A stretch of 34,146 nt of DNA from a virus (taxonomy: Duplodnaviria > Heunggongvirae > Uroviricota > Caudoviricetes), in the IMG/VR virus record IMGVR_UViG_2541047954_000008, one strand, 5' to 3'. The notes beneath the pieces were generated by a model. It ran no database searches. It was not told where the DNA came from and worked only from the letters and a program-made list of their open reading frames with translations. Positions within the stretch are counted from its first letter, which is position 1; each line of letters begins with the position of its first letter. This document shows, piece by piece, positions 15,886 through 33,255 of the stretch. The position numbers and the translations under genes are program-made.

Positions 15886-16350
15886 CTACTTAATGCACTG
15901 AGTGCGGATATACTCCTGTGCCCCTTCCAGTTGCATCTGCATCGTCATCAGCCGCTCTCTGAGGGTGAAATAATCCCGTTCAGCGGTGTCTGCCAGTCGG
16001 GGGGAGGCTGCATTATCCACGCCGGAGGTGGTGGTGGCTTCACGCACTGACTGACAGACTGCTTTGATGTGCAACCGACGACGACCAGCGGCAACATCAG
16101 CGCGCAGAGTTTCATTTTCAGCTTTCGCATTGGCTAATTCTCTCGAGTACTTTGCATCGAGCGCAGCAACATCACGCTGACGCTGCTGCATGTCAGCGAT
16201 GGTGGCGTTCGCCTGCTTCAGCTCACTGACTTTTTTATCACGCTGTTCTTTGTAGGCAATGGCGTTATCACGATAATGATTAACAGCCCATGACAGGCAG
16301 ACGATGATGCAGATAACCAGAACATAAATAATCGCGGCGACTCTGCTCAC
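15886..16350 (-). CDS. Rz-type inner-membrane spanin
   Basis: GTG 16350-16348 with GGGGGA upstream, overlaps endolysin stop; N-terminal TM then coiled coil; Rz1 embedded in +1 frame. Confidence 0.8.
15948..16130 (-). CDS. Rz1-type outer-membrane lipoprotein spanin, embedded in Rz
   Basis: 60 aa, signal peptide with lipobox VVVGC, proline-rich (PPPPPAW), wholly inside Rz in another frame. Confidence 0.75.
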
Positions 16351-16880
16351 TGATCTATCCCCCAACAGGATAATGCGCTTTCCTGGTCACGACGAATAAC
16401 CTGTCCATAGCAGTTATTTGAACGGATACGGCAGTCACGCCCACCATCTTTTATCCACCAGCGAATCGCCTCGCATGCACCTTTACGATCACCGGCATTC
16501 AGCCGCTTATAAAACGTCGACGGGAAACACTTACCGGGGCCAATGTTATAGGGACAGAATGATGCGATACCGGCTTTCTGTGGCTCAGTCAGTGGAACTT
16601 TTATATTGCGCTCCACCCATGCCAGCGCCTTATCACGCTCAATGGCATTAACCTGAGCGCATTTTTCCTTCGACAGTTTCATTCCTGGTACGACTGGCTT
16701 ACCGTCCACCATCGTTGCACCGCGGCAGATGGTCCATATGCCGGAACCATCGCGGTATGCCGTAGTGTGGTTACCCTCTTTTTCATCCAGAAACTGGTCA
16801 AGTATTTGAGGAGCAGACGCGCCTGCAGCAATCAGCGCCAGAACAGCAGCTGACAGGCCGTATTTGATTTTTGCGCTCAT
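16347..16880 (-). CDS. Endolysin, phage lysozyme with N-terminal SAR-type hydrophobic segment
   Basis: 177 aa; N-terminus [16 protein letters not shown] then E...D...T catalytic spacing ([18 protein letters not shown]). Confidence 0.8.
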
Positions 16881-16935
16881 GGATATTTATCAGGATGCTA
16901 CCAATGAAAGATACTGGAAAGCCAACTGCAAAAAG

Positions 16936-17250
16936 CTAACAACCCGTAATCGAGTTATCAGAACTGTTAATTTTTATGGTATACCGCGCCTCTGAACAGG
17001 GGCGCGTTTGTGGCAACAGCTCGTCCCCTTCACATAACCCGGCAGCAACATCCAGGAAGACCTGTCTGATGCTCCTTCTGGCTGCTGCCTCATAAAACTC
17101 CAGCGCGGCACCTTCAACACGGTCCAGCGAGATGTCCAGGTCAAAAATTTCACCGTCAAAGCGTTTTTTGTCCCGTAACGCTAAAGTTACCGTAACTTTA
17201 TTCTCAAAATTGCGGATCCCTTTCACAATCAGTTCATAGTTTTGAGTCAT
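16936..17250 (-). CDS. Hypothetical protein between holin and endolysin (YdfR-like position)
   Basis: 104 aa, GGGGAGAG upstream of ATG; same placement as ydfR in the Qin lysis cassette as recalled. Confidence 0.55.
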   Translation of the reverse strand: MTQNYELIVKGIRNFENKVTVTLALRDKKRFDGEIFDLDISLDRVEGAALEFYEAAARRSIRQVFLDVAAGLCEGDELLPQTRPCSEARYTIKINSSDNSITGC

Positions 17251-17254
17251 TGAA

Positions 17255-17470
17255 TTACTCTCCCCGTGCAGCCTTACGCTTGTCTTCTCTGATTTTGAAG
17301 TACAGATTTGTCAGATAAGTCAGGAAGCCCAGAACCAGACTCCCCAGTACACCAATCGCAGCCCACTGTGACGGACTGACCTGATCAAGCCACTGTAAAA
17401 ACCAGTAGCCAGCACTGCCTGCGGAGGTGCCGTAGGCAATGCCCGTTGAAATTTTGTCCATGGATTTCAT
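17255..17470 (-). CDS. Holin, phage-21-type pinholin with dual-start motif MKSM
   Basis: 71 aa with two TM segments; ATG codons at 17470-17468 and 17461-17459 would give 71- and 68-aa forms; GGAGGTGAGG upstream. Confidence 0.85.
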
Positions 17471-17763: not shown

Positions 17764-17838
<75 letters not shown>

Positions 17839-17841
17839 ATA

Positions 17842-17917
<76 letters not shown>

Positions 17918-17919
17918 AC

Positions 17920-17996
17920 TGGACCGCCACCGGGGACTCGAACCTCGCACACTCAACTTAAAGGGTTGACGCTCTTTCCTGATGAGCTAGTGGCGG
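17920..17996 (-). tRNA. tRNA-like gene, anticodon UUU (Lys) if canonical, with C at position 33
   Basis: Acceptor CCGCCAC/GTGGCGG, anticodon stem UCAAC/GUUGA, loop CCUUUAA, encoded CCA; noncanonical C33 and one T-stem mismatch. Confidence 0.5.
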
Positions 17997-17997
17997 T

Positions 17998-18073
17998 TGG
18001 TGGCCCTTGCTGGATTTGAACCAGCAACCTGGCGATTATGAGTCGCTCGCTCTCACCACTGAGCTAAAGGGCC
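17998..18073 (-). tRNA. tRNA with CAU anticodon (Ile2 lysidine-type or Met), ileX/ileZ-like
   Basis: Acceptor GGCCCUU, anticodon loop CUCAUAA, T-loop TTCAAAT, encoded CCA. Confidence 0.7.
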
Positions 18074-18198
18074 GGGCGCGAAATAATACATATGCCAGTT
18101 CAGCTCTGCAATACCCCACACACACCTGATTCAATCCTGTATCTGCTTCATACATGGTAAAAAGTATGAGCAGCCAACAAAAAGTTACTCAGGCAATA

Positions 18199-18972
18199 TT
18201 AACGTACTCTGACTACATTAATTTTGAAGTCATCAATCTGCCCGCTATTAAGTATAACGAATGTAGAACTCCCATTACTGTACGATTCCGACAATATCAG
18301 CCGATCATCATAGCGTGCAAGAACGTAATACCAGACACTCTCATAGCGAATCATCTGATATTCATTCTTAAACTGGGGCTTGTACCAACCGGCAATAAGT
18401 GAAAATCCCCAGAAATAGATCATGAACCCAGCCATCATACACTCAATCCAGTGATGGCGAATAAAAGACATGTCCGAAAAAAATTTTACTGAAATAAGTC
18501 TTCTTCCTGACCTGACAAAAAACGTAATTATTAAGGCAGCAATAACGCATAAAACCAGTGCATCTGGCGCAACGCGTCGATGAATTACTGAAAACTCCAG
18601 AGCAGGCGGAACAAAAAGCAATAATATCGCCAGAAAAAGTCTGATAAAACTCAGATCCTGCACATTATTTTTTTGTTTGATCCCCAGGAAGAAAAAAACA
18701 CCTGTTCCCCATCCAATCAGGAATATAACAATGACTGTAACAGCATAAAAAAGGCTCCGGGCCACATCATCGACACCAGCCCCAACAACCCACCATGGGA
18801 AACCATAGTAAAAGGAAGTTCCCCAGCCATAGAAGTAAGCGCTCCCCCACCCAAGACAGCCCATATAAGCAACAAAAAGTGAAGAGTGCCTGAGCAGAGT
18901 ACTGTCATCCATAGCAACACCATTAACAACCCAAAAACATAACAACACATTGCATAACAAATGAAGCTCCAT
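18199..18972 (-). CDS. AT-rich cargo gene: polytopic membrane protein (about 6 TM helices, ~65-aa C-terminal tail), function unknown
   Basis: 257-aa ORF in a visibly AT-rich segment; hydrophobic runs e.g. FYAVTVIVIFLIGWGTGVFFFLGI; between the tR'-like terminator and the tRNA array. Confidence 0.6.
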   Translation of the reverse strand: MELHLLCNVLLCFWVVNGVAMDDSTLLRHSSLFVAYMGCLGWGSAYFYGWGTSFYYGFPWWVVGAGVDDVARSLFYAVTVIVIFLIGWGTGVFFFLGIKQKNNVQDLSFIRLFLAILLLFVPPALEFSVIHRRVAPDALVLCVIAALIITFFVRSGRRLISVKFFSDMSFIRHHWIECMMAGFMIYFWGFSLIAGWYKPQFKNEYQMIRYESVWYYVLARYDDRLILSESYSNGSSTFVILNSGQIDDFKINVVRVR

Positions 18973-19058
18973 TTAGTCAAGAAGCTTCATAGCAGGAAAA
19001 ACTCATAGCACAATCGCCATCACATTTAATGTTCTGTGTCTTTTTCGGGTATAAAAAA

Positions 19059-19074
19059 CCCGCTCGGCGGCGGG
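19059..19074 (-). terminator. tR'-like intrinsic terminator downstream of the Q-like gene
   Basis: Forward aaaaaacccgctcggcggcgggtt; on the transcribed strand the hairpin is followed by TTTTTT; 68 bp past the Q stop. Confidence 0.5.
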
Positions 19075-19141
19075 TTGTGCTTGCTTTTGCCATCACGTAC
19101 AAAATCGGCAAAATATCAGATTTGCATGAAATATATGCCTT

Positions 19142-19831
19142 TCAATCTACTTTTGCAACACTTTGCTTTGAAAATGCCGCCTTTTGTATTGAACGTATTC
19201 TCATTACAAACAATAAAGCCTCACTATCCAGTCGGTGAAAAATGTGTTTCATTGCAACCCAGTGACGAGTAAATGTTTTGGACCAGTTTTTAGTTGTCAC
19301 TCCCGCCAGTAATGCCAGCTCCTGGTATTCATAACCTTCCCCACCAAAAAGTTCTGCTTTTACTGCCTGCGCCGCCAGCCAGATTAATTTTTTCAGGCGT
19401 TCCTGCGTTTTCCCTGCAATTTTTCTGGTACCGGATTGAGTATTAAATTCATTCCACGCCCACTGTGTTATCGCGATCTGATATTCCCAACAAATACTCC
19501 CGCTGTAACACCACAACAACCAGGCTTTATGATGTTCTTCAAGAGACAGAACAGCCCGCCGCCACGATGATGTCGAAAACTCAACCGGACTGACCAGAGG
19601 AATTGACGTCCCCTTCGCCAGCGATTGCTTTCCCGGGATTGGTGGATTATCCCGCGTTATCATTTTTCCAGTCACTTCATCGCGGTACCGGATTTTTTTT
19701 CGCCTGTAACGCCCTGTATCGAACATGGCATTCTCTTGCCAGGCTTCAAGCTGACCTTTTGTTGCCCCACTCAAATCAGCGGTGGCGATAATGAGCTGCT
19801 CACGCACAAACTGTAAATACTGGTTATTCAT
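19142..19831 (-). CDS. Putative late-gene antiterminator (Q-like)
   Basis: ATG 19831-19829 overlaps RusA stop (ATGA), GGAG upstream; position between RusA and a terminator preceding the lysis genes. Call by synteny. Confidence 0.55.
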   Translation of the reverse strand: MNNQYLQFVREQLIIATADLSGATKGQLEAWQENAMFDTGRYRRKKIRYRDEVTGKMITRDNPPIPGKQSLAKGTSIPLVSPVEFSTSSWRRAVLSLEEHHKAWLLWCYSGSICWEYQIAITQWAWNEFNTQSGTRKIAGKTQERLKKLIWLAAQAVKAELFGGEGYEYQELALLAGVTTKNWSKTFTRHWVAMKHIFHRLDSEALLFVMRIRSIQKAAFSKQSVAKVD

Positions 19832-20193
19832 GCGCACTCCAGTTCTGTGATTTTTATCCCCAGCCGCCCACCAGGAACGAGCTGACCGCGCACAATATTG
19901 ATTTCATCAAACTGCTCGTCGTCTATAAGTAGTCCGGCATGCGTCAGCGCATCCAGTGGTGCCTTCAGGATATTGTCCAGGTCGCGGCGGCGCTTATCCG
20001 GTGGCTCTGCAATAATCTTTATCGCCAGCCTTCCGGACAGGCTTAATTTCAGCCGCTGCTGGCGAACAATTAGCGCCACATCACGGCGATAACGCTTTCC
20101 AGCTTCCGAGATGAAATACGTATTGCCATGACGTCGCCAGTAGGTATTCACCGTCGGCGGGTAAGGCAAAACAAATTCTATGCGTTCAGTCAT
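19828..20193 (-). CDS. rusA: RusA-family Holliday junction resolvase
   Basis: 121 aa; motifs YPPTVNTYWR and DKRRRDLDNILKAPLDAL recalled as RusA-like. Confidence 0.8.
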   Translation of the reverse strand: MTERIEFVLPYPPTVNTYWRRHGNTYFISEAGKRYRRDVALIVRQQRLKLSLSGRLAIKIIAEPPDKRRRDLDNILKAPLDALTHAGLLIDDEQFDEINIVRGQLVPGGRLGIKITELECA

Positions 20194-21249
20194 TCATGCT
20201 TTCCACTTCAGGACACCCGAATTTCTCGCGTGCATTAAAAAACGAATCAGCAACAACAGCTGGCTGCCGTGTTTTTCTTCAAAATCTTTTACCCCGGCGT
20301 GCAGTTCGTTATGACATTTACGGCACAGCGGAATAACAAACAAATCATCAGCCTTTGTTCCCATCCCTCCCAGTCCATGACCAATGATGTGATGCGGATC
20401 ATCTGCCTGATTACCGCACGTCATGCATTTCTGCGTTTTTACCCAACGCGTGTATACAGGCATCTCTTCCCGTTGTGGTTTCTGGCGCTGGAGATACTGA
20501 GCCGGTGACTCCGGATCAACGGCAATGCTGACCACCGTCTTTTCCTGTGGCGGGTTTTGCTGGTGGGCGTGAGGCAGCGGCGCAAGATTTTTTGTGCGCT
20601 GCTTCAGTATGCTGGTGGCGGTCTGCTCTCCCGGTACGATGTCGCTTTCACGGTACATTGAGCGGATTTTTTCCGCACGCAACCCCAGCGAACGACGTAA
20701 TACCGCTTCCGGTAGCGCGTCCGCCACCTGATTGCGGACCGCCCACCAGGATAATTCAGCCAAAGATAATTCACGCTCCTGCGTACCGCTTATTGCGTGA
20801 CCGATGACGTCAATCATCCATGCTGACAGGTTTTGATGAGCAAGTTGCTCGAGTGATTCGGATGTCTGGTCACGCAGCTGGTTGTCGCAGTGCCAGCACA
20901 ACACCATTGCGCCGGTACCATAACGGTGAATGACGGTTTCGCTGTGATGATAATCGCCGTGTGGCCACTGGCAGGATTTAATATGGCGCAACAGCCAGTC
21001 AGACAATGCACCAGCACCACCAGCAGCACGAATCACCCGTGCGTTACTGAAAAACGGCAGCAATGTTTTGTCTTCCACCAGCGGCTGGCGAACGGCAGGA
21101 ACGACCCCGGACGGCAGATTACGCATGCTTTTCGGTTCCGGCTCCACCAATACCCGGGTATTGTGGAATACCGGCATGGATTCACGGCCCGGCTTAACGA
21201 TCACCAGCCCGAGTTCCGGTACCAGAACAGGTCGAAGTAATACCCGCAC
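20194..21249 (-). CDS. DUF968-type protein with C-terminal HNH-like motif (YdfU-like)
   Basis: 351 aa, GTG start with GGAGG upstream; C-terminal CMTCGN...HHIIGHG...CRKCHNELH. Confidence 0.65.
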   Translation of the reverse strand: MRVLLRPVLVPELGLVIVKPGRESMPVFHNTRVLVEPEPKSMRNLPSGVVPAVRQPLVEDKTLLPFFSNARVIRAAGGAGALSDWLLRHIKSCQWPHGDYHHSETVIHRYGTGAMVLCWHCDNQLRDQTSESLEQLAHQNLSAWMIDVIGHAISGTQERELSLAELSWWAVRNQVADALPEAVLRRSLGLRAEKIRSMYRESDIVPGEQTATSILKQRTKNLAPLPHAHQQNPPQEKTVVSIAVDPESPAQYLQRQKPQREEMPVYTRWVKTQKCMTCGNQADDPHHIIGHGLGGMGTKADDLFVIPLCRKCHNELHAGVKDFEEKHGSQLLLLIRFLMHARNSGVLKWKA

Positions 21250-22361: not shown

Positions 22362-22517
22362 TTACTCCTCAGGTTCGTAAGCTGTGAAGACAGCGACCTC
22401 CGTCTGGCCGGTTCGGATTCGTACCTCGCAGAGGTCTTTCCTCGTTACCAGTGCCGTCACTATGACGGTTAAACAGATGACGATCAGGGCGATTAGCATC
22501 GCCTTTTGCTGCTTCAT
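22362..22517 (-). CDS. hok: Hok/Gef-family type I toxin (51 aa)
   Basis: MKQQKAMLIALIVICLTVIVTALVTRKDLCEVRIRTGQTEVAVFTAYEPEE, recalled as HokD/RelF-like; AGGAGAAG 8 nt upstream; in-frame upstream ATG at 22574 gives a 70-codon ORF. Confidence 0.85.
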   Translation of the reverse strand: MKQQKAMLIALIVICLTVIVTALVTRKDLCEVRIRTGQTEVAVFTAYEPEE

Positions 22518-22728
22518 AGCCTGCTTCTCCTTGCCTTTCGGCACGTAAGAGGCTAACCTACATGTGTTCAGCATGGATTGAGCCTCAGATTAATGTTAAG
22601 CGTCTTGCGGGACGCGTAATGTTAACTGGGGCTTTTCTCTATCTGCCGTTGGTGTTCATGCCCGAGGCAGATAGCCTCAAGCACCCGCAGCAATTCTACT
22701 TAACTCACGTCACCTCGCCAATATAAAA

Positions 22729-28687: not shown

Positions 28688-28745
28688 TTTCTGGTGACGT
28701 TTGGCGGTATCAGTTTTACTCCGTGACTGCTCTGCCGCCCTTTTT
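28688..28745 (+). ncRNA. dicF: DicF small RNA (antisense regulator of ftsZ) with hairpin and T-run terminator
   Basis: tttctggtgacgtttggcggtatcagttttactccgtgactgctctgccgcccttttt recalled as DicF; ends hand-estimated. Confidence 0.7.
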
Positions 28746-31884: not shown

Positions 31885-32088
31885 ATGAGCAGCTTATTTT
31901 TAACCGAAGATGAATTGCTAATATTAACGGGCTGCAAATATGCAAGCCACCAGCGAAAATGGTTAATGGAAAACGGGCTTCCGTTCTATACCAATCGTAG
32001 TGGCAAACCGATTGTCAGCCGGGATCTATTTACCTGCAATAAAACTTTACCACCACGCGAGGTAGAGCCGAATTTTGGTGCGATCTGA
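31885..32088 (+). CDS. xis: Excisionase-like DNA-binding protein
   Basis: 67 aa immediately upstream of integrase; stop overlaps integrase ATG. Confidence 0.6.
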   Translation: MSSLFLTEDELLILTGCKYASHQRKWLMENGLPFYTNRSGKPIVSRDLFTCNKTLPPREVEPNFGAI

Positions 32089-33113
32089 TGGGAAGACGAA
32101 GGAAAAATCCTGAACACGAAAAATTACCTCCAAATGTATACCCAAATAAATATAGTTATGTATGGAAACCAACATCCAGAGAATCTGTCACACTAACCGC
32201 CATCAAGGATGGTTTAGCTGCTTTATGGAAAAAGTATGAGGAAACTGTAAATAATCGCGATCGTGCAATGACATTCGGTCGCTTGTGGGAAAAATTCCTC
32301 GCCAGCGCCTATTACAGTGACCTTAGTCCAAGAACACAAAAAGATTATCTGCAACATCAAAAAAAGTTGCTTGCCGTATTCGGTAAGGTACCAGCGGATT
32401 CCATAAAACCAGAACACATCCGTCGATACATGGACAAAAGAGGGGAGCAGAGTAAAACGCAAGCCAACCATGAAAAAAGCAGTATGTCCCGTGTTTACAG
32501 TTGGGGGTATGAGCGAGGGTACGTCAAGGCTAACCCATGTGCAGGTGTAAGTAAATTCAAGGCCAAAAACCGCGAACGATATGTAACCGACAAAGAATAC
32601 CAGGCAGTATTAAGCGTTGCACCTCTTCCTGTTTTTATCGCAATGGAAATTGCCTATCTGTGTGCAGCGAGGGTTTCCGATGTGTTATCGCTGAAATGGG
32701 AACAGATTGGAAACGACGGGATATTCATCCAGCAAGGGAAAACCGGAAAAAAACAGATAAAAGCATGGAGTCCACGATTACAGGCAGCGATCGAAAAAGC
32801 AAAACAGTTACCAAAATCTGCCTATGTGATCAGCAATCAATACGGCAACCGATATATGTACAAAGGCTTTAACGAAATGTGGGTAGAAGCAAGAAATCGT
32901 GCTGGAAAAATTTCAGGTATTTTAACCGACTTCACCTTTCATGATCTGAAGGCGAAAGGAATTTCAGACTATGAAGGAAGCAGCCGGGATAAGCAACTTT
33001 TCTCTGGTCACAAAACCGAAGGGCAAGTGCTAATCTATGACAGGAAGGTTAAAGTTTCACCAACACTTGATGTCCCGTTACCTGAAAATATTCCAAGAAA
33101 ATATTCCAAGTAA
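32088..33113 (+). CDS. int: Tyrosine integrase
   Basis: 341 aa; C-terminal catalytic region with HDLK and conserved Tyr (LIYDRK); adjacent to tRNA. Confidence 0.85.
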   Translation: MGRRRKNPEHEKLPPNVYPNKYSYVWKPTSRESVTLTAIKDGLAALWKKYEETVNNRDRAMTFGRLWEKFLASAYYSDLSPRTQKDYLQHQKKLLAVFGKVPADSIKPEHIRRYMDKRGEQSKTQANHEKSSMSRVYSWGYERGYVKANPCAGVSKFKAKNRERYVTDKEYQAVLSVAPLPVFIAMEIAYLCAARVSDVLSLKWEQIGNDGIFIQQGKTGKKQIKAWSPRLQAAIEKAKQLPKSAYVISNQYGNRYMYKGFNEMWVEARNRAGKISGILTDFTFHDLKAKGISDYEGSSRDKQLFSGHKTEGQVLIYDRKVKVSPTLDVPLPENIPRKYSK

Positions 33114-33165
33114 TTCCAAGTGTGATTTTTGTCACTGACTTAATGATGTGTAAGTGATTGAATTT

Positions 33166-33255
33166 TGGCGGAGAGAGGGGGATTTGAACCCCCGGTGGAG
33201 TTGCCCCCACTCCGGTTTTCGAGACCGGTCCGTTCAGCCGCTCCGGCATCTCTCC
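33166..33255 (-). tRNA. serU: tRNA-Ser (anticodon CGA), host gene serving as att site
   Basis: 90-nt cloverleaf with long variable arm: GGAGAGATGCCGGAGCGGCTGAACGGACCGGTCTCGAAAACCGG...CTCTCCGCCA. Confidence 0.8.

Follow-up and report, generated by a model that had tools for sequence, protein, structure and literature searches.

A single AT-rich gene lies between the antiterminator gene Q and the lysis genes of a lambdoid prophage in the stretch of DNA analysed here (IMG/VR record IMGVR_UViG_2541047954_000008, 34,146 nucleotides, referred to as the window), and it raises the question of what kind of gene this is, how it comes to occupy this position, and whether it serves the phage or the host. 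The locus is on the minus strand, where the late-gene switch and lysis region extends over 16.3-21.3 kb, and the original prediction described it as an AT-rich cargo island encoding a polytopic membrane protein of no recognizable family, with superinfection exclusion, abortive infection, lysis timing and envelope modification as four possible functions. The gene is an optional, compositionally foreign cargo gene in the Q-to-lysis slot, although the 'island' reduces to one gene and its leader. By sequence comparison its product is a TfpB-family (PF27470 / PHROG 1521) inner-membrane protein; the family is named and already known, and the gene is neither an orphan nor a new kind of element.

The assignment to a family rests on two lines of evidence. 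The protein matches PHROG 1521 with an E-value of 7.7e-85 across profile positions 1-221 of 222 (the PHROGs label is 'unknown function'), and all 110 relatives found in a search of 5.8 billion proteins carry a precomputed match to PF27470, which is named 'TfpB'; in one source an E. coli member bears the label 'protein tfpB'. PF27470 postdates the Pfam copy used, and the window protein is placed in it indirectly, by way of these relatives, including P0005, which is 93% identical over its full length. TfpB relatives with the PF27470 match span 93% down to ∼13% identity and share a length of ∼240 amino acids, the pattern of helices, an N-terminal A-Y-x-Y-G-W-G...Y-G-x-P motif and a C-terminal YY(V/I)L...IL beta domain. 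The family is small; among 1.84 billion representatives searched with a profile, 71 proteins reached E <= 1e-3. The window protein had no match in the Pfam copy lacking PF27470, NCBIfam, PADLOC or the PDB sequence libraries, comparison of 54 family members with Pfam and PADLOC gave nothing meaningful, and a family profile found nothing in the PDB. Since TfpB has no assigned function, membership explains nothing about mechanism, and literature searches under PF27470, tfpB with Moraxella, TciB/DUF3927 and the RefSeq protein accessions returned nothing on the gene. The Pfam name presumably goes back to tfpB, an open reading frame of Moraxella bovis and M. lacunata that lies where their pilin genes invert, a link that is drawn from the family name and the one source label; when Neisseriaceae and Pasteurellaceae members were used to seed a third homology search, no named Moraxella TfpB was retrieved.

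Members of the family are found in four settings: lambdoid prophages of E. coli, Shigella, E. albertii, Citrobacter, Salmonella, Klebsiella, Cronobacter, Enterobacter and Yersinia; the Salmonella chromosomal gene STM1630; a divergent Klebsiella/Enterobacter/Raoultella subgroup that adjoins an SRAP gene and umuDC; and stand-alone genes amid housekeeping genes in Pasteurellaceae and Neisseriaceae. In the four Klebsiella and Enterobacter loci of the divergent subgroup (L101-L104) the tfpB-like gene always lies between the SRAP (YedK-like) gene and umuDC at a prophage/integrase border, and in L101 a 495-amino-acid reverse transcriptase and a resolvase are encoded close by. Horizontally acquired toxin and effector loci, including Salmonella steB/sseJ, are a recurring neighbourhood for the family. 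A chromosomal homologue of Glaesserella parasuis directly adjoins cdtA/cdtC (L013, 4952-7014), and one in a Mesocricetibacter metagenome-assembled genome stands beside an HlyB/HlyD-type exporter (L012, 4888-8454). Two strains of Aggregatibacter actinomycetemcomitans each have two paralogues per genome, on separate contigs (L014/L020 and L015/L017).

The open reading frame from 18199 to 18972 on the minus strand is intact and full length, and its 257 codons and C-terminal sequence are just as originally described, but the likely product is shorter. The ATG at 18912 is most likely the true start, giving a protein of 237 residues (18199..18912), as judged from the invariance of this methionine in alignments of 26 and of 35 sequences, from the length of most relatives (237-238 amino acids), and from G-rich, Shine-Dalgarno-like stretches that precede this codon in all alleles. 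The 237-residue form is also the one called by PGAP in E. coli APEC O1, the closest complete genome (99.5% identity across the feature), where the counterpart, WP_000342819.1, is annotated as 'hypothetical protein'. Initiation at the upstream ATG at 18972 was considered and rejected; that codon is inside a conserved 28-nucleotide element, the extension is not conserved, and the relatives begin at the invariant methionine.

How this protein sits in the membrane was examined with an AlphaFold2 model computed from 54 diverse sequences of the family (predicted local distance difference test score, pLDDT, 80; predicted template modelling score, pTM, 0.74). Helices span residues 5-36, 47-78, 89-111, 116-135, 142-153 and 155-181, and are followed by five strands within 184-235; lysine and arginine counts per loop across the 54 members correspond to net charges of +1.1, -1.4, +1.9, +0.3 and +1.7. 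From these we infer a cytoplasmic N-terminus, five membrane helices and a periplasmic C-terminal beta domain, with helix 142-153 probably a positively charged, cytoplasmic amphipathic helix. Where the original prediction had about six hydrophobic helices, about five would cross the membrane and one would be amphipathic, and the soluble C-terminal tail proposed at ∼65 residues is modelled as a five-stranded beta domain of ∼55. A first model, from 35 close sequences, was poor (pLDDT 61), and its top Foldseek match, to MscS (E 0.09, TM-score 0.16), was rejected when the good model failed to reproduce it; no joint superposition on the pore helix and beta domain of MscS-type channels was found, the two sharing a loosely similar architecture in which a small beta domain comes after the membrane helices. 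Solved structures contain no match for the window protein.

The composition of the segment bears out its description as AT-rich. Segment 18100-19141 has a GC content of 0.412, compared with 0.502 for the window overall, which places it in the bottom 0.6% of 1042-nucleotide segments and makes it the lowest-GC kilobase (the minimum for a segment of this length is 0.406, at 18151), and GC at third codon positions is 0.41 in the TfpB-family gene compared with 0.45-0.68 in the adjacent phage genes. The dip is real, yet it is typical of a mosaic prophage and not unique, with four further patches of the window at 0.42-0.43.

The signals that precede the gene identify it as the first gene of the late transcript. 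Upstream lies an 82-type antiterminator Q (19142..19837, minus strand; Pfam PF06323 Phage_antiter_Q, E 1e-90) with 72-76% identity to the Q82-like protein of phage 434, and a consensus scan places a sigma-70-like, pR'-like promoter, TTGCAA-17-TATATT, at 19158..19130 (minus strand), overlapping the end of Q. Ahead of the terminator the sequence varies with Q type, as a cognate Q/pR' pair would predict. A short leader transcript of ∼70 nucleotides (19050..19125, minus strand) would run from it into a tR' hairpin, placed originally at 19059-19074 and given by a terminator scan as a 7-bp stem with 5 G-C pairs (stem 19076..19057, minus strand) and TTTTTT directly after it; loci of three Q types keep both hairpin and T-run. 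No terminator was detected between the TfpB-family gene and the tRNA and lysis genes that follow, and from this and its position after pR'/tR' it follows that Q-modified polymerase must transcribe through the gene, in accord with the late co-transcription that had been proposed for this cargo slot. The short transcript (19053-19125, minus strand) also has a weak match to the Rfam model of isrK, a small RNA (sRNA) of the Gifsy-1 prophage, which at 22.8 bits (E 0.019) is below the gathering score of 50; RNAs of the IsrK type may simply be late-promoter leader transcripts of this Q/pR' type.

A survey of 80 IMG/VR loci and several annotated genomes shows what moves with the gene. It usually starts ∼230-250 nucleotides past the Q stop codon, but the Q itself may be of PF06323 (as in the window and in 434), of PF03589 (in 273- and 192-residue forms) or of PF06530/DUF1133, and the holin downstream may be of PF04971 or PF05449; many related loci have tRNA arrays of varying composition behind the gene. 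When the intergenic regions are aligned, the sequence upstream of the terminator follows Q type, whereas the hairpin, a leader of ∼140 nucleotides and the gene are common to all, and because only these three are shared across Q types, we conclude that the mobile unit consists of terminator, leader and gene. No conserved partner gene was found in any TfpB context.

The leader runs from tR' to the start codon (18913..19049, minus strand; GC 0.35), has conserved sequence blocks shared between Q types, and contains the 28-nucleotide element already mentioned, TTGACT-N13-TTTGTTATG, at 18953..18980 (minus strand). In the form TTGAC(T/G)-N13-TTTGTTATG it recurs in 82 of the 86 enterobacterial loci, whatever their Q type (L004, L008, L024, L029 and L050 are among the examples), and in 79 of the 82 it ends 39-40 nucleotides upstream of the ATG; L008, where the element is also kept, lacks phage flanks. 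Its sequence makes it a candidate promoter or protein-binding site, and as a promoter we hypothesize a -35 box of TTGACT, an 18-nucleotide spacer and an extended -10 box, TGtTATGca. Two other readings of the leader were rejected: that it is a structured RNA, the RNAalifold consensus being worth only -2.3 kcal/mol, and that a leader peptide begins at the conserved TTATG, which is unconserved as a reading frame, several alleles reading ATG TAA. No conserved upstream open reading frame was present among the aligned alleles.

The gene is both common and dispensable. It is present in only 3 of 50,697 phage records, but 1197 of 5426 complete E. coli genomes (22%) have a copy detectable by blastn, with up to four per genome, and all E. 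coli copies among the entries inspected are annotated as hypothetical. Phage 434 carries it; 434B, a plaque-forming derivative of 434, has no TfpB-family gene, its Q, late promoter, the gene and the gene's neighbours having been replaced by a DLP12 segment, Q-nmpC::IS5-holin (PMC9119081). As 434B is viable without it, the gene is dispensable for lytic growth in the laboratory. The gene is therefore a moron in the Hendrix/Juhala sense, insofar as it is an optional insertion between conserved modules with a composition unlike that of its flanking genes; as to the moron's own promoter and terminator, there is a non-canonical promoter-like element that the promoter scan does not call, and no terminator ahead of the tRNAs.

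One possibility is that this passenger is decaying and has no current function in the window prophage. Degenerate copies do exist: the copy in L082 is frameshifted with an insertion sequence upstream, many partial proteins occur among the relatives, and the promoter of STM1630 is silenced in Salmonella sequence type (ST) 313. The window copy, however, is intact and full length, its leader elements are conserved, and comparison with 14 alleles gives a ratio of nonsynonymous to synonymous substitution (dN/dS) of 0.12-0.20 overall with dS up to above 1. Substitution ratios of this kind are those of a working gene under purifying selection, and we regard decay as very improbable. The constraint is strongest in the N-terminal third (dN/dS 0.05-0.09; the middle has 0.2-0.47 and the C-terminal part 0.13-0.32), where the first two helices and the aromatic/glycine loop that connects them form an almost invariant core rich in aromatic and small residues, AYMGCLGWGSAYFYGWGxSFYYGFPWW...DDVARSLFYA. 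Residues A15, A25, Y26, G37, G175 and Y195 are near-invariant in both wide family alignments (A3 and A4), and P39 in A4 only; no invariant polar residue was found across these alignments, which favours packing, binding or pore formation over catalysis.

A second possibility is that the protein acts late in the phage cycle, as a lysis-timing modifier (antiholin-like or a holin partner) or as a membrane-conditioning aid to release. Its production would coincide with that of the lysis proteins, since the gene heads the late transcript and no terminator intervenes up to the tRNAs and holin, and a membrane protein with a predicted periplasmic domain recalls some antiholins, of which T4 RI is an example. 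The linkage to two unrelated holin families and to varied endolysin cassettes counts against this, though, and either tRNAs or, in 434 and O157, 2-3 kb of other cargo separate the gene from the holin. It is also missing from lambda-type phages in the phage collection as well as from the viable 434B, intact homologues persist at non-phage chromosomal sites that have no lysis genes, and Pfam searches with the window protein and all 54 members gave no holin match. A late-phase function is accordingly improbable, if less so than decay.

The role that we favour, tentatively and at somewhat less than an even chance, is that of an optional host-envelope cargo gene that benefits the lysogen, by lysogenic conversion or increased fitness, and not of a lysis gene. 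The gene, as a moron, moves between lambdoid prophages together with tR' and the ∼140-nucleotide leader, and because the unit includes tR', it is the first gene read once any Q lets RNA polymerase pass that terminator. In the lysogen it may be expressed at a low level from the promoter-like element of the leader, with strong expression after Q acts. The protein would need no partner and no catalytic activity to affect the host envelope; through the conserved membrane core and the periplasmic domain it would bind or gate something, to the benefit of the lysogen rather than of virion production or lysis. We favour such a role because intact relatives persist in chromosomes without phage genes, because STM1630 is regulated with virulence genes, because the gene is indifferent to the types of Q and holin around it, and because it appears to carry a promoter of its own, in the form of the candidate element described above. 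STM1630 is reported to be induced in macrophages, and is listed among the genes co-regulated with Salmonella pathogenicity island 2 (SPI-2) (Yoon et al. 2009, PMC2639726). According to Text S1 of Canals et al. 2019 (PMC6785131), S. Typhi lacks it, it is driven by a promoter of its own that ST313 has inactivated, and its transposon mutants are reported to be attenuated in calves and chickens.

Several points weigh against this reading. Clean deletions of STM1630 are normal in growth in LB and in intramacrophage proliferation (PMC6785131), and no experiments on phage-borne members were found in the literature. The 28-nucleotide element lacks the T at -7 and was not called by the consensus promoter scan, and may instead be a DNA site of a different kind; the topology that puts the beta domain in the periplasm is drawn from charge counts and the AlphaFold2 model. 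Placement at the head of the late operon should give bulk expression during lytic growth, a better fit to a phage-cycle function, and a gene engaged in conflict between phages could also show the allelic diversity of the middle and C-terminal regions and the multiple copies in one genome.

This last point leads to superinfection exclusion or defence, in which a lone inner-membrane protein would block DNA entry by other phages or kill the infected cell; we consider this possible but somewhat doubtful, and grade it as nearly as plausible as the host-envelope role. The gene is phage-borne and compositionally foreign, it is single and autonomous in lacking a conserved partner in any context, it can be present in up to four copies per genome, and its middle and C-terminal regions (dN/dS 0.2-0.47) change faster than its core (0.05-0.09), all of which would be in keeping with exclusion, as would the lysogen expression that the conserved promoter-like element would permit, and the location of the Klebsiella/Enterobacter subgroup at a prophage end by SRAP and umuDC genes, with a reverse transcriptase in one locus. 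On the other side, PADLOC 2.0 identifies nothing in the window protein and only chance-level matches among the 54 members (best E 0.003), structure comparison reveals no match to viral proteins, and the Pasteurellaceae and Neisseriaceae copies lie amid housekeeping genes and not in recognizable defence islands. The evidence does not separate exclusion and defence from host-envelope and fitness functions.

A bolder and rather unlikely proposal is that TfpB proteins are inner-membrane effectors of a new class, each working as a single protein with a fold unseen in solved structures, and that they form or gate a membrane pore, or block a conserved inner-membrane entry route, so as to confer phage exclusion or immunity to toxins or bacteriocins. 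Temperate phages of Enterobacteriaceae would then place the gene at the head of the late operon, mucosal Pasteurellaceae and Neisseriaceae would keep a chromosomal copy, and the activity would explain why the family recurs beside the stx slot, cdtABC, an RTX-type exporter and sseJ/steB. Whatever its role, the gene heads the late operon in prophages of about one fifth of sequenced E. coli, including O157:H7 and avian pathogenic strains, as well as in phage 434, and relatives adjoin virulence loci in Salmonella and Pasteurellaceae. It is a tractable 'known unknown': small, without partners and dispensable, with a natural 434/434B pair, so that a screen for phenotypes would be cheap. Should a phenotype be found, thousands of 'hypothetical proteins' would be annotated, and a new prophage route to envelope change or to the exclusion of competitors could be revealed.

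The remainder of the locus, all on the minus strand, has the layout of a lambdoid late region. In order of transcription a DUF968 protein gene (20194-21249) comes first and is followed by a RusA gene (19828-20193) located between it and Q; beyond the TfpB-family gene, and before the holin, is an array of four tRNAs (17764..18073) identified by ARAGORN, Rfam and the PGAP annotation of APEC O1, in the order CAU, Lys-UUU, Thr-UGU and Gly-UCC. The CAU tRNA (17998-18073, minus strand) is Met according to ARAGORN and Ile according to PGAP in APEC O1, and is presumably a lysidine-modified reader of AUA codons, like ileZ of Stx phages; in related loci the tRNAs that follow it are swapped among Lys, Arg, Thr and Gly. 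The lysis cassette (16347..17470, from Pfam and the APEC O1 annotation) comprises a P21-type holin (17255-17470; PF04971), a DUF1327/YdfR protein (16936-17250; PF07041) and a lysozyme (16347-16880). Elsewhere in the window, a full-length match to the sok antitoxin RNA (22512-22686, minus strand; Rfam RF01794, 113 bits) points to a type I toxin-antitoxin locus of the hok/sok (hokD-like) kind in the early region of the prophage, and there is a match to DicF (28689-28740, plus strand; RF00039, 77 bits), a cell-division-inhibiting antisense sRNA typical of Qin-like prophages. A plus-strand reading frame of 341 codons adjoins a tRNA-Ser(CGA) gene (33166-33255, minus strand) within 32088-33255, and the region has the appearance of the prophage end that carries integrase and attachment site.

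Among the closest known systems is phage 434, in which CPT_434_68, a 'putative membrane protein', is 58% identical to the window protein. Both in 434 and in E. coli O157:H7 (WP_001302581.1) the gene directly follows Q and the terminator and has the same leader blocks as in the window, but where the window has its tRNA array, these loci have DUF3927 (TciB), a small membrane protein and an SASA/DUF6645 esterase ahead of the holin. It is possible that the tfpB-like gene, the DUF3927 mini-protein and the small membrane protein of 434 and O157 (L004, 4812-5215; L109, 5654-5821) constitute a three-gene membrane module.

The best-studied chromosomal member, STM1630 of S. Typhimurium, is encoded by a 717-bp gene and is 45% identical to the window protein, with 238 amino acids (P0071); its identity is confirmed by a published deletion primer that encodes NSSMLLAYLGGLGWG, the N-terminus of P0071. 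Unlike the window gene it is chromosomal, located between the effector genes steB and sseJ, and it differs upstream, where it has a mapped promoter of its own but neither Q nor terminator nor 28-nucleotide element. The Q-to-S slot of lambdoid phages is an established site for cargo, occupied by stx in Stx phages, nmpC in DLP12, the lc porin in PA-2, and nanS-p esterases. The window gene resembles this classical cargo in its slot, in being optional, in its deviant composition and in its transcription by Q-modified polymerase; it differs in its product, for whereas the classical genes encode a known toxin, porin or esterase, the cargo here is an inner-membrane protein.

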